DNA from: Patescibacteria group bacterium | GTDB taxonomy: Bacteria; Patescibacteriota; JABMPQ01 | Direction of reading: 5' to 3' | DNA length: 57,063 nucleotides | Assembly: GCA_041749335.1 (NCBI GenBank) | Contig: JBGTBM010000004.1 | Location: 1-57,063, forward strand | Shown here: piece by piece, positions 1-57,063 of the stretch | Layout of the letters: the number at the start of each line of letters is the position of its first letter | Numbering within the stretch: position 1 is the first letter of the stretch | Notes under the pieces: generated by a model | Databases searched by the model: none | Told to the model about the DNA's origin: nothing | The model's input: the letters and a program-made list of their open reading frames with translations, nothing else | Translations under genes and position numbers: made by a program

Positions 1-592
1 TCCGCTGACCCACTCCGCAGATCCCCTGCAATTGCGTATCACAGGTAATGGTAGTACCGGCGGTGCAGACGTTACCGAGGCAGCCATCGTCCGGCGTGCC
101 GTTGCAGTTCTGGTCGATGCCATCCCCGCAGACTTCCGTCAGAGTCCCGGGCAAAACATTCGGAACACATTCGCCGTAACCGCTCCGGTCCGGCAAACAC
201 GTCCTAATGCCAACTGAACACACTCCTTCAAATGAAGTATAACAGGGAACTTGATCGCCCGCTTCGCATGGATTATCACATCCTTCATTAATTTGTCCAT
301 CACAGTCATTATCGATCGAATCCGAACAATATTCTTGTACATGTCCGGGATAGGTGAGAAATTCACACTCTCCCCATGCACTCCCATCATCCAAACAAAC
401 TCTCTTGCCGATCTCACACACTCCAAAAGCCCCTGTGTTACAGGAGCGGACATCACCCGGATTGCAGGCTCTATCAATTCCATTTCCATTGTTGTTATAG
501 TTATTACCACCAATAACATTATTGTTATTATCATCACAACCGGTAAAAACCATTAAACAACATAGATAAAAACCAATACTGATTCTGTGCAT
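1..592 (-). CDS. Cys/Asp-rich repeat lipoprotein (MopE-like 'putative metal-binding motif' repeats); runs off the left edge
   Basis: Not in the ORF track. My translation from ATG 592 (SD AGGAGGAG) reads MHRISIGFYLCCLMVFTGCDDNNNN...CSDSIDNDCDGQINEGC...EVCGDGIDQNCNGTPDDGC and is open to position 1. Lipobox FTG-C. Confidence 0.8.
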   Translation of the reverse strand, partial: MHRISIGFYLCCLMVFTGCDDNNNNVIGGNNYNNNGNGIDRACNPGDVRSCNTGAFGVCEIGKRVCLDDGSAWGECEFLTYPGHVQEYCSDSIDNDCDGQINEGCDNPCEAGDQVPCYTSFEGVCSVGIRTCLPDRSGYGECVPNVLPGTLTEVCGDGIDQNCNGTPDDGCLGNVCTAGTTITCDTQLQGICGVGQR

Positions 593-692
593 CCTACTCC
601 TCCTTCTGGGTTGGTTGACATCATTCAGATTTTAATTCTTCGAAATTTTTTAGCTAATTGTAAGGTTCAATCCGTACTATTCCGAACATTAC

Positions 693-721
693 ACATTAAT
701 TACTTTTATGCAAATTGTCAA
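693..721 (-). promoter_or_regulatory. sigma70-type promoter
   Basis: TTGACA (716-721), 17 nt, then TAATGT (weak -10). Confidence 0.4.
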
Positions 722-848
722 GTATTTTCAACTCTTTCAATTGCTAATAGATATTACCATTTTACAATAAAAAAAGCTCATTTGATTAGCTTGCGCCATA
801 TCATTTGAGCTTGTTGTGTTTATAAGGATCTAATATTTATCAGAAATT

Positions 849-1982
849 CTATTCAGGCGGTGGACAAGCATCACCTCCCAGGTTGCACGAAAGCAACGAG
901 GGACAAGCGGGTTCACTTTGCACATCGACATTGCACAAAAACGTATTGAGAGTGAATTGCACACACGGGTCCGGTACGAACAGCACCGACCCGGGGCTAT
1001 CCGAAGAGGCTCCCGTACGCGGCATGAACCAGTTATAACCGACCTCCGCAGGCACCGGGAAGACGACCATGTTTCCGGTCTGAATCCCCGTCACCCACAG
1101 ATTTCCTCGGCTATCGTTGGTCCAAAATTCCATCAAATGGAAGTCGGTTGCACGCTCCCCCGAAAGCCAAACCTCGTCGCCGTAGCGAGCAAGAGTCAGA
1201 CTCGGACAAGCCGGACAGCCTTCGTCCACCTGGCCGTCGCAGTCATTGTCCAGACCATCGCACATTTCGGGAGCGCCGGGATACACCGCAGCATTGCTGT
1301 CATCACAGTCAGTCGCGGTGGTATAACCGTCGCCATCCGCATCCACGGGAACGGTGCAACCCTCGTCCACCAAGCCGTTGCAGTTGTCGTCCAGCCCGTT
1401 GCCGCATACCTCGGGAGTACCCGGATGCACGTTGGGATTGGCATCGTTACAATCTCCCTGATTGGGAGTATAGCCATCCCCGTCCTGATCCAGATCGCCC
1501 GGATCGATAGTGCAACCCTCGTCCACCAAGCCGTTGCAGTTGTCGTCCAGCCCGTTGCCGCAGACTTCGGTTTGAGGTCCGACCTGTCCGAGGCACTGAT
1601 CGCCCCAGACGCCATCGGTACAAACCTGAACTCCGGCTTGACACACTCCGACGTCGGTCCCGCAAGGCCTGGACATGCCGCTTTCGCAGCCGCCGCATCC
1701 TTCGTCCACCAAACCATCGCAGTCATTGTCGTGGCCATCGCACAGCTCGGGAGCATCCGGATAAACGACGGGGTTCTCGTCGTTACAGTCGCCCTGATTG
1801 GGCGTGAACCCATCGTCGTCCCGGTCCAGATCGCCTGGATCGACATTGTTATTGTTATTTACCCCGGCATCCCCCACTGGGCACGCCGGACAATTGTCAT
1901 TGACCGGACCGCCGACATCCATGGCACAAGCGTTCAAGAAAAAGATGGAAATGAAAATGAAATAAAGATTGCGATTTCCCAT
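849..1982 (-). CDS. Lipoprotein with MopE-like Cys/Asp repeats
   Basis: Lipobox LNA-C; repeated DxDxDGY..xDCND...PE.C.G.DNxCxG.VDEGC; SD AGGAGG. Confidence 0.85.
1354..1562. repeat. Identical 53-bp direct repeat within the CDS (1354-1406, 1510-1562)
   Basis: gtgcaaccctcgtccaccaagccgttgcagttgtcgtccagcccgttgccgca occurs twice. Confidence 0.9.
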
Positions 1983-2012
1983 GTTCTTTCCTCCTGTCTG
2001 TTGTGAAAAACT

Positions 2013-3167
2013 CTAGAACTGATATCCGATAGTGAAAATTCCTCCAACTCCGAATGTCTTGTGGATCCCCCCATTCTCTGGCCAGCGTAACTGTGCCAGA
2101 AGGAGATCTGCCGACACCCGGAGATGTTTGAAAAACAAACCATAAATTCCCACTGAACCTCCCAGAATCTCGTATTCCGAAAGGTTGCGGTAGTTTAGGT
2201 TCCAATTGCCGAAAGCCGAAAGATTCATTCCCACCATCGGGTGGAAATTGATTCCCAGCCCGCCCTTGGCATAGACCGACAGCATCTGCTGCTGCGCCTC
2301 GTACCCAATGCCGCCTTCGATCTGAAGGTCAAGCCGCTCGGGTACCAGCACAAAGCCCATACCGACCATGCCGCCAAAGTTATGACGCCATGCCGGTCCA
2401 CGGCTTAGCAGGTACCAACCACCAGCCCAAATCTTGAGCCAGTCCGGCAACACTCGATCGCCGTCCTTTCCGGCAACTCCCGCCTGTCCGTCCTTACCAT
2501 CCTGGCCGCGCTCTCCATCCTTGGCCTTAGGCAGATACAGTTTGAGCTTACCATCCTGATACTCACCCCGAGGCTTTTCATCCTCGGAAAGCTGAACCAC
2601 CTCAACAGTGGTGATCTTGCTTCCCGGAGAGCCGGGCTCTCCATCTTTCGCCTTGGGCAGATACAGTGTCAGTTCGTCGTTCTGAAGCTCGGACCGAGGC
2701 TTTTCACCCGGCCGAAGCTCCACAATCTTCACCGACTTGATCTTGGGAGAATTCCCATCTTTGCCGTTGAGACCGTTGCAGACCTTGATGGTGAGCAAAC
2801 GCTTGGCGCGATCATATGTATAACCAAACTTGCGATCCGCGGGACAAATGACCTTAACTTTCATATTGGTATTTTTGATGATCTTGCCGGGTTTGCGCTT
2901 ACCGCAACCAGAAGAACCATTCCCATTGAGGGGTGTGAGCTCTGAACGCTTCGTACAGATTTCACTACTCAATCGAGCCAAGTTCGCCCTGATCAAAAAT
3001 TTCTGACGGACCAAACTTGCTTTCCTTTCTGGATCGGTAGTGATGTTGAGCTCGAGATCGATTTTTTCCAATCTCGATTTCAACACGTCGTATTCCGTAC
3101 CTTGAGCAGACACATCGTTCACATTCAAAAGCAAAAAGGAAATCGCCAAAAAAATCATTTTCTTCAT
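2013..3167 (-). CDS. Secreted protein: coiled coil, collagen-like/fibre repeats, C-terminal beta-barrel-like region
   Basis: Signal peptide (VSA-Q); GKDG/GxxG triplets; two ~42-aa repeats ending LYLPKAKDGE; alternating hydrophobic strands ending in GYQF. Confidence 0.7.
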   Translation of the reverse strand: MKKMIFLAISFLLLNVNDVSAQGTEYDVLKSRLEKIDLELNITTDPERKASLVRQKFLIRANLARLSSEICTKRSELTPLNGNGSSGCGKRKPGKIIKNTNMKVKVICPADRKFGYTYDRAKRLLTIKVCNGLNGKDGNSPKIKSVKIVELRPGEKPRSELQNDELTLYLPKAKDGEPGSPGSKITTVEVVQLSEDEKPRGEYQDGKLKLYLPKAKDGERGQDGKDGQAGVAGKDGDRVLPDWLKIWAGGWYLLSRGPAWRHNFGGMVGMGFVLVPERLDLQIEGGIGYEAQQQMLSVYAKGGLGINFHPMVGMNLSAFGNWNLNYRNLSEYEILGGSVGIYGLFFKHLRVSADLLLAQLRWPENGGIHKTFGVGGIFTIGYQF

Positions 3168-3296
3168 TTCTCTATCCTCCTGTTTGTTGTAAATTTAGAA
3201 TTTCCGATAAATTATCAACGTACTAACTTTATTTTCTCTCCGAGCCAGCAAAAATATTATTTTTTCTGATTTTGAGCAAAAATAAATTTTCATAAG

Positions 3297-3325
3297 AACT
3301 TACCATTATTCAATATTTTTGTCAA
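3297..3325 (-). promoter_or_regulatory. sigma70 promoter with extended -10
   Basis: TTGACA (3320-3325), 17 nt, TGn-TAAGTT. Confidence 0.55.
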
Positions 3326-3402
3326 GTATTTTTTCTAAAATAATACCCACTCTTTCTTTGAGTAGGTATTTAATAGGACATTAGGTCAAGGTACATCTAT
3401 TT

Positions 3403-3792
3403 TTATTTGGCACAAACAGCACAGAGGCTACTCAACAAATCAACCTGACTTTGTTCCAACTCTCCCAGTCTATGGGATATCTTTTTCACATCTTCCAGCG
3501 AAATCTTGTTGCTGTTTGTCTGCTCAATTTCTTTGTTCAGTTTTTCAACTTCACTTCGGTACTGCTGTGAATCATCACTATTACACAGGCGACCGATGCA
3601 GCCCTGATTTGCCAACACTACCTTCACCCGTAGCTTCATTTCTTGCAGCTGTTCTCGAACTTTATTGCGTTCGGCAGATGAGGTTTCTGCTTGGCCGCTG
3701 CCTTCTTTCTTTTTGCCACAGCCAGAGAAGCAGAATACTCCACAACACGATACAACCAAAAGCAAATAAATTTTGTTTCTGAAAATCTCCAT
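3403..3792 (-). CDS. Small coiled-coil lipoprotein
   Basis: Lipobox FSG-C; SD AGGAGG; helical body. Confidence 0.75.
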   Translation of the reverse strand: MEIFRNKIYLLLVVSCCGVFCFSGCGKKKEGSGQAETSSAERNKVREQLQEMKLRVKVVLANQGCIGRLCNSDDSQQYRSEVEKLNKEIEQTNSNKISLEDVKKISHRLGELEQSQVDLLSSLCAVCAK

Positions 3793-3843
3793 GACATTTC
3801 CTCCTGTCTGTCAGTGATTTTATGTGCCATCCAAAATCTTTAT

Positions 3844-3872
3844 AGCATATTATAATTTAAAATTTTTGTCAA
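3844..3872 (-). promoter_or_regulatory. sigma70 promoter
   Basis: TTGACA (3867-3872), 17 nt, TATGCT. Confidence 0.55.
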
Positions 3873-3882
3873 TAGTTATTAT

Positions 3883-3923
3883 AAAAAAAGAAGCCCACTC
3901 GTTACAAAATGTATTGAGTGGGC
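3883..3923 (-). terminator. Intrinsic terminator, shared family
   Basis: GCCCACTC...GAGTGGGC stem followed by a T-run on the minus strand. Confidence 0.75.
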
Positions 3924-3947
3924 ATAAGGGGCGGGTAAAGAGCAGAA

Positions 3948-4622
3948 TTACTGGCAGTAGCACTCGGATCCGGTTCCACAGGATGAAACCAGATAGTCTC
4001 CGGAAACTGATGCGCCGGCTAGCTGAAAGCTCCCGACGTCTGTCCAGACCTGCGTGTCGTCACGGAGGGTGAGAAACAGGTTGCCGGTGACACTGCAGCC
4101 CGGAAGTTCCAACGTGGCCGAGTTGCTCTCGACGCTGTAGGTCGCGGACGGAGCGGTAGAAATGTCCTGCTGATCCACGAAGAAACGGACCTTCGCGACT
4201 TGCTCTGGCTTGACATAGCCGAGCATTCCCTTGATGCAGCCGTCTTCACCGAGAGCGAATTGCACATCGAGCAGGATGTGACCGCAGGTGCACGTAAAGT
4301 TCATGGAGGAGCTTGCGACCGCAGGTTCATCGCTTTCCAGAAGACAGTCGAAGTACTGGAGTTCCTCGTCGTACCCGCAGGTATCACCATACGCGACGCA
4401 ATCGATCTCCTGGAGCTCGCCTTCTTCGCACCAGACGACCTTGCCGTCCTCGGTGCACTGGCCTTCGAAGCTGATACCGTTGCAGGGATCGCTGGGTTGA
4501 TCCGGGCACACCGAACATTCGGGACAGGGACGCTGCTGTTGCGGCTCGTCGCCCTGGTCCAGTCCGCAGTTCACGAAGACCACCATCGCTCCCACGAGGC
4601 TGATCGAAACCATGTTCTTCAT
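3948..4622 (-). CDS. Cys-rich lipoprotein
   Basis: Start reassigned to ATG 4622 after GAGGAGG; hydrophobic leader ending VN-C; Cys-rich module C.GISFEGQC..DG.VVWCE. Confidence 0.75.
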   Translation of the reverse strand: MKNMVSISLVGAMVVFVNCGLDQGDEPQQQRPCPECSVCPDQPSDPCNGISFEGQCTEDGKVVWCEEGELQEIDCVAYGDTCGYDEELQYFDCLLESDEPAVASSSMNFTCTCGHILLDVQFALGEDGCIKGMLGYVKPEQVAKVRFFVDQQDISTAPSATYSVESNSATLELPGCSVTGNLFLTLRDDTQVWTDVGSFQLAGASVSGDYLVSSCGTGSECYCQ

Positions 4623-4714
4623 CTTCATCCTCCTCTTTTGGCTATTTGCCAGATGTCTTTGTGATTGGTTAAAGATCTTTCCGATTTTATTATCTGTAAA
4701 ATCTTGAATATAAA

Positions 4715-4743
4715 ATGATATCATATTTATGATATTTTGTCAA
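4715..4743 (-). promoter_or_regulatory. sigma70 promoter with extended -10
   Basis: TTGACA (4738-4743), 17 nt, TGn-TATCAT. Confidence 0.65.
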
Positions 4744-4796
4744 TACTTTTTTACAAAAAATATCATGAACATACCTATTATCCATCTATTTGATAT

Positions 4797-4871
4797 AAAA
4801 AGAAAAACCCGCTCTTGGTGATACAGGATGTATCGAGCGGGTTAAGTAGGAAGGTGCGAATGTGAGGTGGG
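4797..4871 (-). terminator. 3' UTR and terminator, near-duplicate of 6005-6074
   Basis: AACCCGCTC...GAGCGGGTT stem plus T-run; 32-bp block 4834-4865 is identical to 6039-6070. Confidence 0.85.
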
Positions 4872-5486
4872 TCAGGTGTTACAGGGTTTGTAGCCGAGAC
4901 CCTCACCTGGCGTGGGCTCGCTGACACAGACATTGGATCCACGTCTCTCCGATCGAGGGGTGATCACGAGCCACTTGGATCCCTTCTTGAGCTGGAAGTT
5001 CCGGCAGTTCTCCTCCATCCGCTGAGGATCGAGACTGAACACGCCATTACTCCCCAGACCGCGATAGTAGATCCCGGGGCATCGATTGTCCCCCAGACGG
5101 CCGCCGTACTGCAGAGCCTGCCATCCCTGACAGTTCTCCGTGTAAACGACGTTGCCGACGACCCGGATCACCCTGCACTCGGACTGATCGGAACTACCGC
5201 TGCCATCGCTGGGAGGGGCGGGCGGCTTCTTGTAGGAATGCCGCCGCGTGGGAGGAGTCGGCTTCTTGCAGATCTTCTCCAGACAGTCGGCGTAGCCGTC
5301 GACGATGCCCTGGAGCGTGTTCACCTGCTGCTTGAGATCGGAGACCTGCTTCTGAAGCTTGTCGACGTCCGGCTTGACCTTGGACTTGGCTCCACTGCAG
5401 TTGCCGTCGCAGCTGCGACCCAGGTAGATGGCTCCCGCTACGAGAGCGATAACCACCACGATACTGATGATGTTTCTTCGATTCAT
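4872..5486 (-). CDS. Membrane-anchored or secreted Cys-containing protein
   Basis: N-terminal TM helix, coiled coil, Pro-rich linker, Cys-containing C-terminal domain; GC-rich codons. Confidence 0.75.
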   Translation of the reverse strand: MNRRNIISIVVVIALVAGAIYLGRSCDGNCSGAKSKVKPDVDKLQKQVSDLKQQVNTLQGIVDGYADCLEKICKKPTPPTRRHSYKKPPAPPSDGSGSSDQSECRVIRVVGNVVYTENCQGWQALQYGGRLGDNRCPGIYYRGLGSNGVFSLDPQRMEENCRNFQLKKGSKWLVITPRSERRGSNVCVSEPTPGEGLGYKPCNT

Positions 5487-5535
5487 TTCTCATTTCCTTT
5501 CTGCGGTCTTGGTTGGGGTTAAAAACACCTTGTTT

Positions 5536-5590
5536 GCTTCTCAAAACAAGCTGGAAAAAAATATTTTTTGTCCAATTTGCTTTGAGAAGC
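5536..5590. repeat. 5' leader hairpin (~55 nt)
   Basis: GCTTCTCAAA...TTTGAGAAGC inverted repeat; similar to 6994-7049. Confidence 0.8.
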
Positions 5591-5646
5591 TACCTCACAT
5601 TTTCAAAGTTCTAGATATGAAAATATAATCATTTTCAAATCATAGC

Positions 5647-5675
5647 AGTGTATCATACTATCAACTTATTGTCAA
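5647..5675 (-). promoter_or_regulatory. sigma70 promoter with extended -10
   Basis: TTGACA (5670-5675), 17 nt, TGn-TACACT. Confidence 0.65.
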
Positions 5676-6004
5676 GGCTTTTTGTCAATTTATTGTAACT
5701 AACTACTATTTTTAGGCTTATTAATAATATTATTTGGTAAATATTTAATTAACATTTTATTTAGAATTTAGTCTTTAGTCATTAGTTGCTTAGCTATTAG
5801 GAATCTATTTATATTTTCATATTTCTTACTTCATTCTTTATGCTTTATAATTTATTTTTTTTAATTCCAAATACGAAATACTTAATACTAAATTATCCTA
5901 ACTTTCAATAAAATTACTTCCTACACTATATTTTGTATTTTCGCACTTATAATGTTCAATATATAATTTCACTATTGACTAACTTACTAATGCGCTAATC
6001 CCTA

Positions 6005-6074
6005 TATAAAAGAAAAACCCACTCAATACAGAACGTACCGAGCGGGTTAAGTAGGAAGGTGCGAATGTGATGTG
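6005..6074 (-). terminator. 3' UTR and terminator, near-duplicate of 4797-4871
   Basis: AACCCGCTC...GAGTGGGTT stem plus T-run. Confidence 0.85.
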
Positions 6075-6932
6075 CTACTTGGAAGAGGCGTGCTTGATGT
6101 AGACGCCCAACGATCCGAGGAAGGCCACGCCGTGGGGTGAGCCGAGATGATGGTCACCAAAGTGATGTTGATATCCGACTCGCGCCTGATACCAAAGCAC
6201 CGCCTGCTTACCCATGCCAATCTCTCCTCGCGCTCCCAGTCCCATGTACAGCATCCCTCGTTTCTCACTGGCGGGAAACACTCCAACGTTTGTGTGGGTC
6301 TCCGAGGAGTTGAAGTATCCGGCACCGCCAAGGTAGGCCAAGGGAAAAATCCACTTGAACCCGGCGGGATGCCAAGCCACATCAACCTCCCCCATCACCT
6401 GATGCTCGGCTGCATCGTAGTAGCCGTCAGCGAGGTCATAACGGTCCTTGCCCAGCCACTGGTAGTGCAGCTGGATGTTCAACTGGTACGTGTTCTTCCC
6501 TTGCCACTGTTTGTGCAGCAGCAGATAGGGATGAACGATGCCCATGTCTCCATCCTGCAGGTCTACCAGTAGATCCAGCCGGAACGTCACGTCCACTGCC
6601 TTACCCAACTTGAGCTGAAGGGTGGGACCGAGTAGATACTCGTCCCTGTCGGTCCAGGTCTGATACTGGTACTGGAACCTGCCGCCGATGGAAACCGGCA
6701 AGCTCTTTGCGAACTGCCACCGGCCTTCGAGACAGACATCCGCGCCGGCAGTGTAGCCGGCCACACACGCTGCCAGTTCCGAGTAGTTCGTGGCTGCCGG
6801 AGCCGAGGGGCTCTTCTGGCCATTGAAGTCGTAGCGCAGCTCACCGTATCCCACGGCCGAATTCTGCGCCGCCGCATCCGAAACCAACACCATCATGACG
6901 GAAAACACAACGAACTTCGTCCAGAATTTCAT
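6075..6932 (-). CDS. Secreted protein with beta-barrel-like strand pattern
   Basis: Likely start MKFWTKF at 6932 after GGAGG; signal peptide AAA-Q; many Y/W/G-rich amphipathic strands. Confidence 0.7.
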   Translation of the reverse strand: MKFWTKFVVFSVMMVLVSDAAAQNSAVGYGELRYDFNGQKSPSAPAATNYSELAACVAGYTAGADVCLEGRWQFAKSLPVSIGGRFQYQYQTWTDRDEYLLGPTLQLKLGKAVDVTFRLDLLVDLQDGDMGIVHPYLLLHKQWQGKNTYQLNIQLHYQWLGKDRYDLADGYYDAAEHQVMGEVDVAWHPAGFKWIFPLAYLGGAGYFNSSETHTNVGVFPASEKRGMLYMGLGARGEIGMGKQAVLWYQARVGYQHHFGDHHLGSPHGVAFLGSLGVYIKHASSK

Positions 6933-6993
6933 GGAATCCTCCACCCCCGCCTTGCGGGGTCCCCTAGTAGGGGAAGCTTGGGTTTTTTAATTT

Positions 6994-7049
6994 AACTTCT
7001 CAAAGTAAACTAAGTACAATCTTTTCTACCCAATTTACTTTGAGAAGTT
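6994..7049. repeat. 5' leader hairpin (~56 nt)
   Basis: AACTTCTCAAAGTAAA...TTTACTTTGAGAAGTT, 16-bp perfect outer stem. Confidence 0.85.
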
Positions 7050-7112
7050 TTAGCACATCTTTTTAAGGAACATGCTCTTTTACATAAATAATCATTTCTA
7101 GCATATCGCAGC

Positions 7113-7141
7113 ATAGTATCATATTATTACTTTTATGTCAA
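7113..7141 (-). promoter_or_regulatory. sigma70 promoter with extended -10
   Basis: TTGACA (7136-7141), 17 nt, TGn-TACTAT. Confidence 0.65.
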
Positions 7142-7265
7142 GGGTTTTTATTATTTATTCAAATTTCTGTAATAGAATTATCCCTTTTTATGCTTTTTAA
7201 TATTTTAATAAATCCCCCTTTTAAAATGTTTCAAATCAAGATAATATTTAAACATAAATATAATT

Positions 7266-8414
7266 ATGAAAAATACATTAATAATTTCCAGCTTTTTTCC
7301 TCCTGATCACGGTGGAATACAAAATTATATTTTTAATTTCGCCAAAAGATTGCCTCATGAAAAAATCTTTATTTTAACTGACAAAAATACCAATTCATTA
7401 TCTTTTGACAATAAACAAAATTTTAAAATATATCGGAAAAGTTTTAAAAGCCCCTTGCGTTATATTAAATTATCTTCACTTGATCTGCTCTTGAAAGCCA
7501 GAAGAATTATTAACCAAAACAATATTGAACTGCTAATTGCAGGACATTTTTTCTTACCGGCGCTCACCTGCTATCTGCTTCATCGCTTAACCGGCATCCC
7601 CTATCATATTTTTACTTATGGCACCGAGATTACCGAATTGAAAAATTCTTCTGATTTAAAAAGAAAGTATATGCATAAAATCCTGGATCAAGCCGATAAA
7701 ATTTATACCATCTCGGATTATTTGAAAAATATTCTAATAGAAAATAGGGTTAAAGAGAAGATAATTATCAAAATTTATCCCGGTGTAGATACACAGCGCT
7801 TTACACCAAAAGATAATTTACTGGCCAAACAACACATTTCTAATCTTTTGAAAACAGATTTAACCGATTATAATATTATTTTAAGTTTAGGAAGATTGGT
7901 TAAAAGAAAAGGCCAAGATATGGTGATAAAGTCTTTATCAAACATATTGATAAAATTTCCTAAAACAAAATATTTAATTGTTGGAGATGGTCCCGACCGA
8001 GAATATTTAAGAAATTTAGTTAAAATAAATAATTTATCCAATTATGTAATTTTTGCCGGCGCACCTGATAATAATAATATTTTAGATTACTATCAAGCCT
8101 GTGATATTTTTTCTATGCCATCACGAACTTTAGAAAAGTCACAGGATGTTGAAGGTTTTGGGATAGTTTATTTAGAAGCGGCCGCCTGTGAAAAACCCGT
8201 TATCGCGGGTAAAGGCGGCGGAGTCGCTGAAGCCGTTTCTGAACAGACCGGCATAATTGTTGACTCCACCAACCCCGATGAAATAGCTAAGGCCATTATT
8301 TTATTGCTTGAAAATCCGCATATTGCTAAAAAATTGGGTGAGAACGGACGCCAAAGAGCAATTAAAGAGTTTAATTGGGATAAATTAGCAGAGTTATTAA
8401 AAATAAATATCTAG
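7266..8414 (+). CDS. Glycosyltransferase family 4
   Basis: FPPDHGGIQ, GRLVKRKG and EGFGIVYLEA motifs. Confidence 0.92.
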   Translation: MKNTLIISSFFPPDHGGIQNYIFNFAKRLPHEKIFILTDKNTNSLSFDNKQNFKIYRKSFKSPLRYIKLSSLDLLLKARRIINQNNIELLIAGHFFLPALTCYLLHRLTGIPYHIFTYGTEITELKNSSDLKRKYMHKILDQADKIYTISDYLKNILIENRVKEKIIIKIYPGVDTQRFTPKDNLLAKQHISNLLKTDLTDYNIILSLGRLVKRKGQDMVIKSLSNILIKFPKTKYLIVGDGPDREYLRNLVKINNLSNYVIFAGAPDNNNILDYYQACDIFSMPSRTLEKSQDVEGFGIVYLEAAACEKPVIAGKGGGVAEAVSEQTGIIVDSTNPDEIAKAIILLLENPHIAKKLGENGRQRAIKEFNWDKLAELLKINI

Positions 8415-30844: not shown

Positions 30845-30881
30845 AAAAAAAGCCCGCATGGTATAAAAACCGCTGCGGGCA
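30845..30881 (-). terminator. Intrinsic terminator after the DGR-target-like gene
   Basis: GCCCGCA...TGCGGGC followed by T7 on the minus strand. Confidence 0.75.
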
Positions 30882-30940
30882 TTATGATTAAAGAACAAAG
30901 AGCTAAGGATAAAAAAATCTAAAGTTCTGAGAGCTGAGTA

Positions 30941-31558
30941 CTACTTGCAGAGGAGGGCCGGGTAATCGTCATCCCAACGAATGCCGAGCCAGCTGAAATG
31001 CCTGCACCACTCACCGCCGTTCCAACACAGACAGCACACATACAGGCGGCCGTCCGAGTAGCGGTAGATCGTCCCCCAGAAGAAGATGTATTTGTCTTTC
31101 CACTCGTCCGGGATGAGATAAGTATGCCCAATCAAATAGTCGAGCACGTTAGCATTGAGGATGAGTTTGCGCTCCAGCTTCTTGCGCAGCTCGTGACCCC
31201 CGATCCCTACGCTCTTTTGCTCAACGTCGAGATAGAGCTCGATTCGGTTTAGATTCAACTCAAACTGGCCACCCTTGAGGTGCTCAACTACTTCCCAGCC
31301 TTTGGGGAGAAGGGGGACGGCGTCGCAGTCGATGATGTGCCTCTTCTCGTTAATCTCGAGTTCGCCGCGCAGAAACGCTTTAGCTCCCTCGATGCCGCCG
31401 ATTTTATTAAGGATCGCTTCCAGCCGGCCCAGAGTGAGTTCTCCGTATTTCACCGGAGAAAATTCCCGTCCTGCCAGCACCTTCTTTACCGCTTCCTTGC
31501 CGCCCAGCAGTTCAATCAGACTCACCGCTTCCTGCAATGTCATGCTTCCGTATTCCAT
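30941..31558 (-). CDS. Putative DGR target (variable) protein with CLec-like C-terminus
   Basis: C-terminus FWGTIYR..DG.LYV.CL.WNGG.W.R.F.WL..RW...YPALL resembles CPR DGR variable regions as I recall them; variable-looking codons are mostly NNY; duplicated N-terminal YG..TL...EA....(L/I)GG.E motif. Confidence 0.7.
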   Translation of the reverse strand: MEYGSMTLQEAVSLIELLGGKEAVKKVLAGREFSPVKYGELTLGRLEAILNKIGGIEGAKAFLRGELEINEKRHIIDCDAVPLLPKGWEVVEHLKGGQFELNLNRIELYLDVEQKSVGIGGHELRKKLERKLILNANVLDYLIGHTYLIPDEWKDKYIFFWGTIYRYSDGRLYVCCLCWNGGEWCRHFSWLGIRWDDDYPALLCK

Positions 31559-31625
31559 TTGGTACTCCTTGGAGCTAGTTGCTCCGCCAAAGATTTGCCT
31601 CTACCCGAGACAGGGGCTTCTCGAT

Positions 31626-31677
31626 ATGAGAAGAGCTTGCTCTAGCCAATTATTCAGCTAGAATAAACTCTTCTCAT
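31626..31677. repeat. 5' leader hairpin (~52 nt)
   Basis: ATGAGAAGAG..TCTAGC...GCTAGA..CTCTTCTCAT. Confidence 0.8.
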
Positions 31678-31707
31678 TTTTAAAATAATACAAGAATCAA
31701 CTTTGAT

Positions 31708-31736
31708 ATTTTAACAATTAATTTTGATATTGTCAA
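31708..31736 (-). promoter_or_regulatory. sigma70 promoter with extended -10
   Basis: TTGACA (31731-31736), 17 nt, TGn-TAAAAT. Confidence 0.7.
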
Positions 31737-51137: not shown

Positions 51138-51596
51138 TTATTTCACCCGATGAATAACATAAGTAACTACGCCCCATACCTCAAAATCGTCATCCGCAGT
51201 TACTGTAATATTATTATAATCAGGATTTTCAGCCATTAAATAAATACTTTTCCCTTTCTTTTTCAGGCGCTTAATGGTAAATTCGCCCGCAAACATTGCT
51301 ACTACAATGCTATTATCGACAGCTTCCAACGACCTATCTACTATTAAGATGTCTCCCGAATTAATTCCAGCTCCAATCATTGACATCCCTTCTACCTGAA
51401 CAAAAAATGTGGCCGCCGGTTTCTTTATTAGATACTCGTTAAGGTCTAATTTTTTTTCTATAAAATCATCCGCCGGCGACGGAAACCCGGCCGAAATTTT
51501 TGATATAAAAAGCGGCAATTTTTGCCTGGTTCTTTTATCAAAACTAAAAATTTTAGCGATATTGGATATATGATTTTTTATAATATCTCTACTCAT
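51138..51596 (-). CDS. umuD: UmuD (S24 autopeptidase)
   Basis: SAGFPSPADD, G.SM, FTIKRL. Confidence 0.93.
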   Translation of the reverse strand: MSRDIIKNHISNIAKIFSFDKRTRQKLPLFISKISAGFPSPADDFIEKKLDLNEYLIKKPAATFFVQVEGMSMIGAGINSGDILIVDRSLEAVDNSIVVAMFAGEFTIKRLKKKGKSIYLMAENPDYNNITVTADDDFEVWGVVTYVIHRVK

Positions 51597-51664
51597 TTAA
51601 TTAAATTAACGACAACAATTATATATTTTATTTATACCCGGCCCCCCTTTTTTCTCAAAAAACC

Positions 51665-51693
51665 TTGACATAGATTTAATAATATGTTATTAT
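51665..51693 (+). promoter_or_regulatory. Strong sigma70 promoter with extended -10
   Basis: TTGACA, 17 nt, TGn-TATTAT. Confidence 0.75.
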
Positions 51694-51699
51694 ATGAAC

Positions 51700-51943
51700 A
51701 TCATGGGATATTCGGAGCGCGCCCGTATCCATACGGTCTCACACCGATATCCACGCTCTCTTGTACCTAGGAGGTCAAATACGCAAGGAGGTCCCCACCA
51801 TGAACTGCAGACTGAACGACTGCCATTACCGCTTTACCTGACCGCAGCTCTCAGCCCAAGGACACCATAACGACTCGAGCGGAAGATTTCTACTTTCAAG
51901 CCACACCAGGCCGGAAAGAAAGAAATACTTCCGCTTCTTTTTT
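51700..51943 (+). ncRNA. Candidate structured sRNA or small-peptide mRNA
   Basis: GC-rich island between the promoter and a GAGCGGAAG...CTTCCGCTTC-T6 end; AAGGAGGT followed by the ORF MNCRLNDCHYRFT* (51800-51841). Confidence 0.5.
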
Positions 51944-51947
51944 TATC

Positions 51948-52619
51948 TCAATATGCTCCTTCAATCTCCGGCTTAATTAATTCCGGCTCGTCATTGATCG
52001 GTTTATTAACTTTTTTCGAAACTTGATACATTTCCATATTTTCGCCCGGATACGGCATTAAATATTCCGGTACTTTAGATATTTTAGTGTTTTTATCTAT
52101 CCATTTTTTTTCATTTTTTTCCTCCAATATTGCCGGCATGCGATCATGGATTTTTGCTACTAGTTTATTGGCGTCGACAGTAATAATTGTAAAAGTTTTT
52201 ATTTCCCTGCCACCAGCATCTTTCCAAATGTCATACATTCCCGCCATGGCAAAAAGCTCATTATCTTTTCTTTTGATAAAATAAGGCATCTTGCCATTTT
52301 GTCTATCCCATTCATAAAAACCATTAGCCGGTACCAAACAGCGCTGGGTTCTTAGGGGCTTGCGGAAAGCGGGCTTAGAACTTAATGTTTCCGCGCGCGC
52401 ATTGATCATGCGGTAACCAATTTTTGGATCTTTAGCCCAAAAAGGAATCAGCCCCCATTTCATTATTTCAACTTTATTATCGCCTTTTTCCTGCTTGATA
52501 ATGGGAAAGTTATGGCCGGGAGCTATGCTGTAATGGATCTTTAAATCTAATAAATTATTTTTTACATTAAAACGCGAATAAAATTTTTGAATGTCATAGA
52601 AAGCAAAACGTCCACACAT
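51948..52619 (-). CDS. SOS response-associated peptidase (SRAP/YedK/HMCES)
   Basis: MCGRF N-terminus, INARAET, GFYEW, IHDRMP. Confidence 0.95.
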   Translation of the reverse strand: MCGRFAFYDIQKFYSRFNVKNNLLDLKIHYSIAPGHNFPIIKQEKGDNKVEIMKWGLIPFWAKDPKIGYRMINARAETLSSKPAFRKPLRTQRCLVPANGFYEWDRQNGKMPYFIKRKDNELFAMAGMYDIWKDAGGREIKTFTIITVDANKLVAKIHDRMPAILEEKNEKKWIDKNTKISKVPEYLMPYPGENMEMYQVSKKVNKPINDEPELIKPEIEGAY

Positions 52620-56571: not shown

Positions 56572-56746
56572 GCCCTTTATTATTGTTTAACATTATAATA
56601 TATCGATTATTTTATAAAGTGTTTATTCTTTCTACTATAATGATAACTAATTTTAAATCTTTTGTCCACAAAAATCATCAAGGGAGTTCCACCTTGTTGC
56701 ACGCGCACGGGAAGGGCGGGGCAAGCGCAACTATTCTTTTTCTTTC

Positions 56747-56925
56747 GGCCCCGCCGTCCGAAAAAATTGCTGGGGGTTTCCGGCAGGCGGGCAAAAAGGA
56801 AGGGGGTGGGGGGGGAAGGAATTTTTGCCCGCCCGAGCGTTCAGTTTCTGCCGTCCCGCCAACGGCGGGAGCAATCAGTCGGAGTTTCGTTCGAAAAAGG
56901 TTCGAGCTTCGTTCAGCAATTGCGA
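56747..56925 (-). repeat. Right copy of the inverted repeat
   Basis: Reverse complement of 53478-53645 with a few substitutions and indels. Confidence 0.92.
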
Positions 56926-57063
56926 CCAATCAAGACATTTCAAATTTTCAGGGGAAAGAGCTTGCTCGCTCGCCCCGCCGGAGTTTATCCCGCATGGCGA
57001 TGCGGGAGCGGGTCTCGCTTCGCAAAAAGCCCTGCCCTCCTGCGCTTTTTCAGCTACGGCGGG
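56875..57063 (-). CDS. 3' end of a gene entering from the right edge, probably a site-specific (serine) recombinase
   Basis: Open frame ...FCEARPAP...GGASEQ...ENLKCLDWSQLLNEARTFFERNSD*; resembles CPR recombinase tails as I recall them; no catalytic domain visible. Confidence 0.5.
   Translation of the reverse strand, partial: PAVAEKAQEGRAFCEARPAPASPCGINSGGASEQALSPENLKCLDWSQLLNEARTFFERNSD

Follow-up and report, generated by a model that had tools for sequence, protein, structure and literature searches.

In the Borrelia vls locus, surface lipoprotein genes are GC-richer than the very AT-rich genome, and this bias is conserved among relatives. In the Streptomyces bldA/TTA system, a small gene class contains codons that are rare elsewhere, and a few tRNAs could gate its translation. 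The 5′ hairpins of Escherichia coli ompA, the STAB-SD of Bacillus thuringiensis cryIIIA and 3′ retroregulator hairpins are known to stabilize mRNAs. Here we describe an array of GC-rich genes that can be compared with each of these systems. It occupies positions 1–7150 of a 57,063-nt contig of a Patescibacteria group bacterium (GenBank assembly GCA_041749335.1, contig JBGTBM010000004.1; the whole stretch analyzed is referred to as the window). The units of the array have their own near-consensus promoters, strong Shine-Dalgarno (SD) sequences and terminators in a genome that is AT-rich and SD-poor, and their genes belong to a small class with members elsewhere in the genome. This finding is genuine and reaches beyond the source genome. 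As for its interpretation, we tentatively favor, with somewhat less than even confidence, an expression channel for envelope genes that is autonomous and SD-dependent, the genes using a GC-ending codon dialect.

Architecture of the array

The window is contig C4 of a 10-contig, 1.03-Mb genome (97.5% complete, 0% contamination) whose contigs have 33–40% GC each; related genomes are 0.5–2 Mb in size. The initial annotation of this DNA had described seven co-oriented, GC-rich genes in six units separated by AT-rich spacers, and both the GC windows and the map of open reading frames (ORFs) bear this out. Seven minus-strand ORFs (p7 to p1, Table 1) form six self-contained units, which run on into contig C9. 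The ORFs have 51–59% GC, the spacers 25–37% and the other DNA of the window about 29–41% (500-nt windows). The GC-rich composition ends exactly at the ORF borders, and the leaders and non-conserved spacers adjoining the GC-rich ORFs have 20–30% GC, with 20–25% in the spacers. Among the six complete ORFs, GC content at third codon positions (GC3) is lowest in p4, as expected from its earlier description as the least shifted gene, and in the incomplete p1 GC3 is mosaic (0.2–0.4, climbing to 0.8). The array is adjoined by a glycosyltransferase gene and a chain-length-type gene, both of which are envelope-polysaccharide genes.

Each unit had also been said to carry a TTGACA-17-TAnnnT promoter, a strong SD and, when complete, a 3′ hairpin, in a genome whose ribosomal genes mostly lack an SD; all of these statements hold. 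TTGACA, a 17-nt spacer and TAnnnT are present in 6 of 6 units. A promoter scan listed four of them, three with a TG-extended -10 element, and the other two (3297–3325 and 693–721), which the scanner missed because their -10 hexamers are too weak, were read directly from the sequence. AGGAGG, GGAGG or AAGGA lies upstream of all seven array starts. A hairpin followed by a U-run closes every unit (fold z -3.8 to -7.6 against shuffles), including that of p1, whose terminator is found in contig C9 (z -3.8). The genes p3 and p2 lie 30 nt apart behind a single promoter and constitute one operon. By comparison, rpsL, rpsG, fusA, tuf, rpsJ, rplB, rpsH and their neighbors in the window have A/T-only upstream sequences and no SD. 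The 3′ end of 16S rRNA, which the initial annotation had proposed to check, retains a canonical CCUCC anti-SD.

What did not survive is the idea that the units have standardized untranslated regions (UTRs) or a common frame. UTR sequence is common to units 7 and 6 only, whose leaders are paralogous and whose 3′ UTRs share 45 nt at 93% identity. When the UTRs and spacers were searched against the genome, no element common to all units was found, and what the units otherwise have in common are consensus signals. A 19-bp hairpin in the leaders of units 7 and 6 is also kept, with compensatory changes, in a related metagenome contig (L006, see below). It is not a terminator, because no U-run follows it, and it may serve as a 5′ stabilizer or a protein-binding site. 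Searches of the whole window against Rfam gave nothing at gathering score and only sub-threshold microRNA or small RNA look-alikes on the leader hairpins.

The array is well supported at the level of assembly. Logan contigs of a sequencing run that is possibly the source of the genome bridge every junction between GC-rich and AT-rich DNA at an even depth of 12–15, and a second run from the same study agrees. In a run from a different study, a 3501-nt contig covers positions 4924–8213 at about 92% identity, linking p6 and p7 to the AT-rich gene for the glycosyltransferase. GC-rich and AT-rich segments are interleaved in the same way in contigs of two relatives. As judged from tblastn and inspection of the sequence, p1 continues into the last 0.75 kb of contig C9 and runs there from 135588 to about 134880, with a terminator at its end. 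The end of C9 (135276–135588) and the start of C4 are adjacent in the genome. The contigs are broken here because about 14 near-identical MopE repeats of ~135 nt in p1 were collapsed, and a joint that “goes back 136” was reported here.

A small class of GC-rich, SD-led genes in the genome

A simple longest-ORF caller gave 969 ORFs, all of which were retained, and a high-GC3 class was defined as GC3 ≥ 0.55; a few of its members are probably wrong frames (e.g., C3 30606–31070 and C10 146087–146335). The GC3 histogram has a single mode at 0.30–0.35 and a thin right tail, with 17 of the 969 ORFs at or above 0.55. The high-GC3 class is a small outlier tail, not a second mode. This tail is strongly associated with expression signals. 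An exact promoter motif was found no more than 350 nt upstream of 10 of the 17 high-GC3 ORFs as compared with 65 of 901 low-GC3 ORFs (Fisher p 9e-8), and an SD of at least 5 nt preceded 14 of 17 and 174 of 901, respectively (p 6e-8). SDs of at least 6 nt were present at 41% of longest-ORF starts in the class versus 3% in low-GC3 ORFs, with 0.9% at 4231 internal ATGs as a control. Besides, N-terminal export signals, assigned by a crude hydrophobicity rule, were detected in 9 of 17 class members and 151 of 952 other ORFs (p 5e-4).

These observations agree with the earlier proposal of a distinct gene class, in which a GC-rich ORF, a consensus promoter, an SD and a terminator occur together, with enrichment in export signals, in an SD-poor and AT-rich genome. 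Two parts of that proposal need to be narrowed. Genome-wide scoring of GC3 and SDs yielded a significant outlier tail, and strict bimodality of GC3 was not found. The statement that every product is exported is correct for the array and incorrect for the wider class, in which the family of the gene at 30941–31558 (p8), an IS110-like transposase and a 479-aa (amino acid) protein have no export signal.

Codon dialect, tRNAs and mRNA structure

The class differs sharply in codon usage from both the bulk of the genes and the ribosomal block. The fraction of Lys codons that are AAG is 0.71–0.78 in the class, 0.22 in bulk genes and 0.29 in the ribosomal block; the corresponding values are about 0.8, 0.33 and 0.31 for CAG, 0.61–0.79, 0.17 and 0.13 for Ile ATC, and 0.61–0.79, 0.14 and 0.07 for TTC. 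In the opposite direction, Leu TTA accounts for 0.01 in the class versus 0.40 in bulk genes and 0.48 in the ribosomal block. Ordinary translational selection can be ruled out as a source of this GC dialect, since the ribosomal block avoids the codons of the class even more and is even more A/T-ending than bulk genes; codon bias for high expression therefore fails as the cause. The tRNA set comprises 41 genes with eight species that have C at anticodon position 34 (C34). Genes for Pro-CGG, Leu-CAG and Gly-CCC tRNAs, which read G-ending codons only, lie side by side at C10 295176–295486.

We also compared native class ORFs with their synonymous shuffles. The class ORFs were more stable than shuffles (mean z -2.6 versus -0.78 in 36 controls, Mann-Whitney p 0.003), and the strongest values in the array were those of p3 (-7.4), p2 (-6.6) and p6 (-3.4). 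With local shuffles, which keep heterogeneity of composition, z was -6.6 for p3, -3.5 for p6, -3.3 for the 479-aa ORF and -2.7 for p2. This excess of structure provides only partial support for a stable-message model.

Two other candidate causes of the composition were considered and rejected. Avoidance of nuclease motifs is not apparent: 9.6 kb of class ORFs, compared with synonymous shuffles, had no missing motif, and the comparison, which revealed generic signals only (TA, off-frame stops, C-runs), was judged uninformative. Regional mutational or repair bias, such as biased gene conversion or transcription-coupled repair, is unlikely because the transcribed leaders and spacers beside the ORFs stay AT-rich, at the 20–30% GC given above.

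Conservation of the units in relatives

Relatives of the array proteins are few. Six homologues of p7 were found in 5.8e9 proteins; p5 had four proteins, including itself, in the same set (three relatives), and p3 had one full-length relative cluster in 1.84e9 representatives. No donor of these genes is visible in these sets. Among 40 related genomes searched, p7 was present in two and p3 was absent.

One relative is L006, a 2.3-kb metagenome contig whose p7 has 82% aa identity. It keeps the p7 promoter, leader hairpin, SD and 3′ UTR, followed by a spacer of 18–25% GC and the unit of p6. Leader 7 of the window is 88% identical to that of L006 (187 of 213 aligned positions) and the 3′ UTR 86%, as compared with 38% at four-fold degenerate sites of p7 (41 of 107), which indicates that the UTRs of unit 7 are under constraint. 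GC at these four-fold sites is 0.69 and 0.66 in the two sequences, and 20 of 53 sites occupied by G or C in both (S-S sites) differ by a G/C swap. More distant loci, L003 and L005, derive from another genus of the same family. Their p7 homologue has about 29% aa identity in the codon alignment and precedes a p6 homologue and one more lipoprotein unit, in a gene neighborhood that differs from that in the window. The p7 and p6 homologues have 65–73% GC and lie behind TTGACA-17-TGTGATACTAT and an SD. Taken together, the units have 65–76% GC, each with a TTGACA promoter and an SD, and are embedded in DNA of 33–45% GC. The counter-explanation raised in the initial annotation, a single horizontally transferred segment with its native UTRs, fails on these data, as relatives conserve the flanks, which are AT-rich.

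Products of the array

In Pfam searches, the array proteins showed MopE motifs and a weak Ig match only. The MopE motif family (PF11617) matched p2 with 142 bits in four stretches (E 6e-42) and p1 with 37 bits, at a cut-off of 27. Read by eye, p1, p2, p4 and p5 have a lipobox Cys (FTGC, LNAC, FSGC and VNCG, respectively). For p6, Pfam gave sub-threshold coiled-coil families only, with an Lpp-like zipper below the cut-off. Neither p7 nor the C-terminal 150 residues of p3 had a Pfam match even at E 5, and a PHROGs search of the array proteins gave nothing useful. The C-terminus of p3 ends in GYQF, with a pattern like that of a small beta-barrel, and ESM Atlas scores for p3 were no higher than 0.80, with small clusters resembling outer membrane proteins as weak leads; this region is a probable small barrel anchor. 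A second gene for a MopE and laminin-G lipoprotein was observed at C9 45117–46259, with a consensus promoter and a 7-nt SD. It is also mosaic, with GC3 of 0.57–0.73 in the MopE modules and 0.23–0.40 in the remainder.

The most informative product is p7. Its AlphaFold2 (AF2) model is all-beta with 13 strands (mean predicted local distance difference test, pLDDT, 81). In the VIA structure search, the best match was the BrkA beta-domain (Z 14.7, root-mean-square deviation 3.8 over 202 residues), and further matches included CymA, AIDA-I, EspP, Omp33, OmpG, FapF and FadL; the matches to 12–14-stranded outer-membrane barrels had Z 14.7–12. The top 50 matches listed were all membrane beta-barrels or barrel-containing proteins, and Foldseek returned membrane barrels only, at low TM-scores. 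A Sec signal peptide ending in A-x-A/Q is present in all seven aligned homologues, and the last strand ends in G-x-Y-[IF]-K before a short tail, which may be compared with a C-terminal beta-signal. With both a signal peptide and a closed barrel fold, p7 is, on its predicted structure, an outer-membrane-type beta-barrel. The genome had no match to the Omp85/BamA, LpxC, secretin or OEP/TolC families, for which positive controls were obtained in 7, 4, 6 and 7 of 14 genomes, respectively; the p7 barrel is without an obvious home membrane or assembly machine in this cell.

Other members of the class

The initial annotation had noted that the architecture of the array recurs at 30845–31736 and 51665–51943. 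At the first site it is indeed repeated, by the p8 gene, which has no signal peptide, and the accompanying claim of export is not supported. Family members of p8 occur in 29 of 300 other Patescibacteria genomes (30 of 301 with the source genome), often in multiple copies. The source genome has three paralogues (30941–31558 in the window, C6 16769–17314 and C7 88989–89609), which are 54–64% identical in aa sequence, yet each has a four-fold GC of 0.74–0.85. Leaders in this family are long, one subtype having a hairpin of the form GCCAYAGC...GCUGUGGC, and the 3′ UTRs contain repeated CUUUGG/CCUUGG-like words ahead of the terminator. The C-terminal domain of p8 is modeled with pLDDT > 90. Its best Foldseek match was the C-domain of Bd2740 (E 0.015), and the VIA search (best Z 4.5) listed mostly C-type-lectin-like proteins and proteins like formylglycine-generating enzyme (FGE), with two variable proteins of diversity-generating retroelements at Z 3.4–3.5. 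A C-type-lectin-like fold of p8 is suggested by these models as a lead only.

The class also includes an IS110-like transposase gene (C3 43406–44716; GC3 0.77, AGGAGG SD), with a Transposase_20 match of 29.4 bits (cut-off 21.3) and a DEDD_Tnp_IS110 match of 17 bits, below the cut-off of 29. It was found in 13 of 300 other Patescibacteria genomes. About 150 nt upstream of this gene lies a GC-rich structured stretch with a U-run end, a possible RNA of the guide or bridge type. GC3 in the fetched loci was above that of neighbor ORFs in 19 of 20 cases for p8 (mean +0.18) and 11 of 12 for the IS110-like gene (mean +0.14), with p-values that are overstated because related genomes are not independent. 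In addition, GC3 tracked local genome GC in both families (r 0.42 for p8 and 0.85 for the IS110-like gene). The GC dialect is also typical of accessory families outside the array, across the whole phylum.

Two further ORFs of the class were observed. The first, at C10 195342–196781, encodes the 479-aa protein, which is basic, rich in CxxC and without a Pfam match; it has the highest GC3 in the genome (0.80) and a strong excess of mRNA structure (z -3.3 to -3.8). The second, a 254-aa ORF at C6 35584–36638 (GC3 0.57, no Pfam family), is located directly downstream of tRNA-Leu(TAG), where a small mobile element may have integrated.

At the second recurrence site in the window, a promoter and a terminator of its own were found, and a co-oriented protein gene was not: the unit is on the plus strand and contains tiny ORFs, either an AAGGAGG-led ORF of 13 codons or one of 58 codons. 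No Rfam family was found for 51550–52050, and the unit may be a small RNA or micropeptide gene. At the opposite end of the contig, 56614–57063 has 53% GC and several GC-rich hairpin-like repeats with no convincing ORF.

Table 1. Coordinates of features of the array and of related units in the window.
Feature	Position	Strand	Basis and details
p7, 285-aa secreted protein, predicted outer-membrane-type beta-barrel fold, GC3 0.72	6075–6932	-	AF2 model, pLDDT 81
p6, 204-aa membrane-anchored protein, coiled coil, Cys-containing C-domain, GC3 0.76	4872–5486	-	ORF map, sequence
p5, about 226-aa putative lipoprotein, Cys-rich, GC3 0.68, GAGGAGG SD	3948–4628	-	VNC-G lipobox by eye
p4, 129-aa putative lipoprotein, coiled coil, GC3 0.45, AGGAGG SD	3403–3792	-	Lipobox by eye
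p3, 384-aa secreted protein, repeats, collagen-like G-x-x stretch, GC3 0.59, AGGAGG SD	2013–3167	-	Sequence
p2, 377-aa putative lipoprotein, four MopE-type Cys-rich motifs, GC3 0.63, AGGAGG SD	849–1982	-	Pfam PF11617
p1, 5′ part, MopE-repeat putative lipoprotein, AAGGAGG SD, mosaic GC3	2–592	-	Pfam
Collapsed tandem repeat in p1, unit about 135 nt, ~14 copies by depth	1–136	-	Depth 205–217 versus about 14.5
Promoter, unit 7, TTGACA-17-TACTAT, TG-extended	7113–7141	-	Scan, 10/12 matches; conserved in L006, similar in L003/L005
Leader, unit 7, about 174 nt	6933–7106	-	19-bp hairpin 6995–7048, GC-rich proximal hairpin, GGAGG SD
3′ UTR and terminator, unit 7	6008–6052	-	Fold -20.7 kcal/mol, z -7.6; also listed by scan
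Promoter, unit 6, TTGACA-17-TACACT, TG-extended	5647–5675	-	Scan; conserved in L006
Leader, unit 6	5487–5640	-	Paralogous to leader 7; hairpin 5536–5590; AAGGA SD
3′ UTR and terminator, unit 6	4796–4846	-	Fold -19.2 kcal/mol, z -6.1
Promoter, unit 5, TTGACA-17-TATCAT, TG-extended	4715–4743	-	Scan, 11/12 matches
Terminator, unit 5	3880–3925	-	Fold -17.3 kcal/mol, z -6.3
Promoter, unit 4, TTGACA-17-TATGCT	3844–3872	-	Scan
Terminator, unit 4	3338–3375	-	Fold -14.6 kcal/mol, z -6.4
Promoter, unit 3 (p3-p2 operon), TTGACA-17-TAAGTT, TG-extended	3297–3325	-	Read from sequence
Terminator, p3-p2 operon	768–815	-	Fold -16.2 kcal/mol, z -4.0
Promoter, unit 1, TTGACA-17-TAATGT	693–721	-	Read from sequence
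p8, 205-aa, no signal peptide, GC3 0.70	30941–31558	-	TTGACA promoter, long leader, AAGGAG SD, conserved 3′ UTR
Small GC-richer unit, about 250 nt	51690–51950	+	Own TTGACA promoter and strong terminator

Discussion

The array may be an island of cell-envelope genes, organized in six autonomous transcription units, in a Patescibacterium of the monoderm type. Each unit would follow the same plan, i.e. a sigma-70 promoter close to consensus (in most cases with an extended -10 element), a leader of 45–175 nt, a strong SD and an intrinsic terminator. The predicted cargo would consist of two lipoproteins with MopE repeats, a collagen-like protein, two further lipoproteins of small size, an anchored protein with a coiled coil and a 12–14-stranded barrel. 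Bulk genes would initiate translation without an SD, on A/U-rich and unstructured start regions, and GC-rich structured mRNAs, being unable to start in this manner, would rely on SD/anti-SD pairing. Together, hairpins at the 5′ and 3′ ends, an SD and a GC-rich body with structure could then make messages that are long-lived and strongly initiated, and these would be decoded largely via tRNAs with G34 or C34 that bulk genes hardly use. The outcome would be surface-protein expression decoupled from housekeeping translation, the purpose being mRNA stability or translational insulation. On the sequence data, an inherited island of autonomous, SD-dependent envelope units, probably with stable mRNAs, would be the most economical account. 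It also appears likelier that the GC dialect is kept by selection than that it reflects plain amelioration: the shift at ORF borders is sharp beside conserved AT-rich UTRs, and the four-fold GC of p7 is high in both the window and L006 despite heavy divergence at these sites.

Several observations weigh against this reading. SD use overall is not tied to export (16/85 versus 144/884). Neither p5 (z 0) nor the copies of p8 show excess mRNA structure, and in p7 it is weak (-1.2). In the high-GC3 class, the shift extends to codon positions 1 and 2. At two-fold sites, p7 of the window and of L006 are 77–80% identical, and by our own arithmetic the counts at these sites fit neutral decay from an ancestor at ~0.8 as well as they fit stationarity. 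In L005, four-fold-site GC reaches 0.94–1.0, which is stronger than weak codon selection in small populations usually gives. The spread of GC3 in the array (0.45–0.76), together with the mosaic p1 and second MopE gene, is more suggestive of modules that differ in age or were imported. Finally, a transposase and a tRNA-adjacent ORF in the class, and the patchy distribution of its families, are as expected for mobile genes.

Much of this evidence would be accommodated by foreign ancestry, which we regard as rather unlikely, though a serious alternative. According to this explanation, the genes came from a mobile or accessory pool of GC-richer genomes (Patescibacteria or hosts), brought portable signals that do not depend on the host (consensus promoter, SD and terminator), and are now ameliorating slowly in an old island. 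It would account for a composition that is atypical at each of the three codon positions, for unequal GC3 among units and the mosaic MopE genes, and for the IS110-like transposase and the tRNA-Leu-adjacent ORF within the class, and it is compatible with the two-fold-site counts. Patchiness (p7, p3, p8 and the IS110-like gene alike) and the different neighborhood of the p7-p6 pair in the other genus also speak for it, and suitably GC-rich Patescibacteria exist, with flanks up to 0.59–0.63. However, promoter, leader and 3′ UTR are AT-rich, are shared by relatives in conserved form and reach exactly to the ORF borders, and p7, p5 and p3 have no donor homologues in very large protein sets. Besides, p8 and the IS110-like gene exceed their neighbors in GC3 even in the GC-richest genomes sampled, and the fact that their GC3 tracks the resident genome favors long residence over fresh arrival from one reservoir. 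The high four-fold GC of all three deeply diverged p8 paralogues points in the same direction.

The SD-dependent channel could be extended to a bolder scheme, which we consider improbable. Patescibacteria would have two translational “languages” in one genome: AT-rich bulk genes without an SD, and a small, maintained set of GC-rich, SD-led genes decoded by otherwise idle G34/C34 tRNAs. The second would work as a switch, for example by remaining active upon starvation or detachment or by being turned on at host contact, and barrels of no use to a monoderm cell itself would be delivered into the outer membrane of a diderm host as a docking or feeding pore. Slightly less probable still is a narrowed form of a proposal from the initial annotation, namely that the genes are host-directed cassettes whose products, above all the barrel or barrels, would target a diderm host of higher GC content, for example as a pore or anchor in its outer membrane, with dialect and signals that mirror the host type. 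Tuning of the cassettes to the machinery of a GC-rich host, as first suggested, would likewise be of low probability. The homeless p7 barrel, with its Sec signal peptide and the absence of Omp85/BamA, LpxC, secretin and TolC-type families from the genome, is the strongest hook for a host-directed function, and the export of all array products and the varying degree of GC-enrichment between relatives are compatible with it. On the other hand, the organism's own anti-SD and full tRNA set suffice for expression, the non-exported p8, transposase and 479-aa protein use the same dialect, and composition alone requires no host.

A capture or diversification device (integron-like, retroelement or recombination) that places ORFs in a common frame, as had been suggested initially, is very improbable. 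The paralogous leaders and common 45-nt 3′ UTR around the unrelated ORFs of units 7 and 6, the variation of array gene content between relatives and the roughly 14 identical tandem repeat units of p1 could be cited in its favor. However, there is no attC-like or other repeat common to all units, each of which has a separate promoter. The genome, 97.5% complete, gave no match to a reverse transcriptase (RVT_1), and the window contains no tRNA; silent copies of array genes are absent elsewhere in the genome, and the array is flanked by the glycosyltransferase and chain-length-type genes, an integrase beside it having been the object of no specific search. A chimera between a GC-rich and an AT-rich organism that arose in assembly or binning, to which the position of the array at a contig end and the high depth at 1–136 might point, is excluded for practical purposes by contigs of one run that cross all junctions at even depth, in agreement with a second run and another study, by the collapsed tandem repeat that explains the depth peak, and by the like interleaving in two relatives.

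If our reading of an SD-dependent envelope channel is correct, the array, with a stable second codon dialect that is confined to ORFs and coupled to SD use, would be a natural case linking initiation mode, mRNA structure and tRNA supply, and it would challenge the default view of GC-deviant genes as recent transfers. The bias common to the unrelated p8 and IS110-like families suggests a general, undescribed rule of genome evolution in Patescibacteria. In addition, a p7 barrel in a lineage without outer-membrane biogenesis would be a concrete candidate for how these epibionts touch or tap their hosts. A literature search, with subscription journals and supplements outside its coverage, found no description of a GC-rich, SD-led class or of beta-barrels for Patescibacteria, and no such gene class or barrel is described in the accessible parts of PMC6851277 and bioRxiv 10.1101/2025.02.28.640651.

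Comparison with known systems

Among the known types of gene array, integron cassettes are similar in that co-oriented, unrelated small ORFs are separated by short structured elements. However, integron arrays have a common attC site and a shared Pc promoter; here neither is found, each unit has its own promoter, and the hairpins are U-run terminators. A genome search found no attC-like site common to the units, and intI, for which no profile search was made, is not represented by the neighboring glycosyltransferase and chain-length-type genes. A diversity-generating retroelement is not indicated either, as no RVT_1 match was obtained and, paralogy apart, the ORFs of the array and of p8 are not repeated at the DNA level.

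Genomic islands resemble the array as surface-related accessory clusters of atypical composition and codon usage that are patchy in relatives. In the array, in contrast, the deviation is toward GC and confined to ORFs, the flanks are AT-rich and conserved, no donor lineage is apparent, and a GC shift of the same families (p8 and IS110-like) recurs in many genomes across the phylum. The array borders showed neither a tRNA nor direct repeats, and also no integrase, for which no specific search was made. The Borrelia vls locus has silent cassettes, whereas tblastn of all array proteins against the genome gave self matches and MopE-motif matches only, without silent cassettes or paralogous donor copies, and the array consists of several unrelated proteins with their own promoters and terminators.

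Relative to Streptomyces bldA, the array is a mirror image, with GC-ending codons in an AT-rich genome and a shift of whole ORFs. The only hint of tRNA gating of the bldA type is the cluster of three C34 tRNA genes. In the mRNA-stabilizing systems, genes whose envelope or secreted products are abundant are likewise framed by a 5′ stem-loop, a strong SD and a hairpin at the 3′ end. The classical cases are without a GC-rich coding body. A GC-rich, SD-led arrangement that is kept by relatives in an AT-rich bacterium of symbiotic type is unusual.

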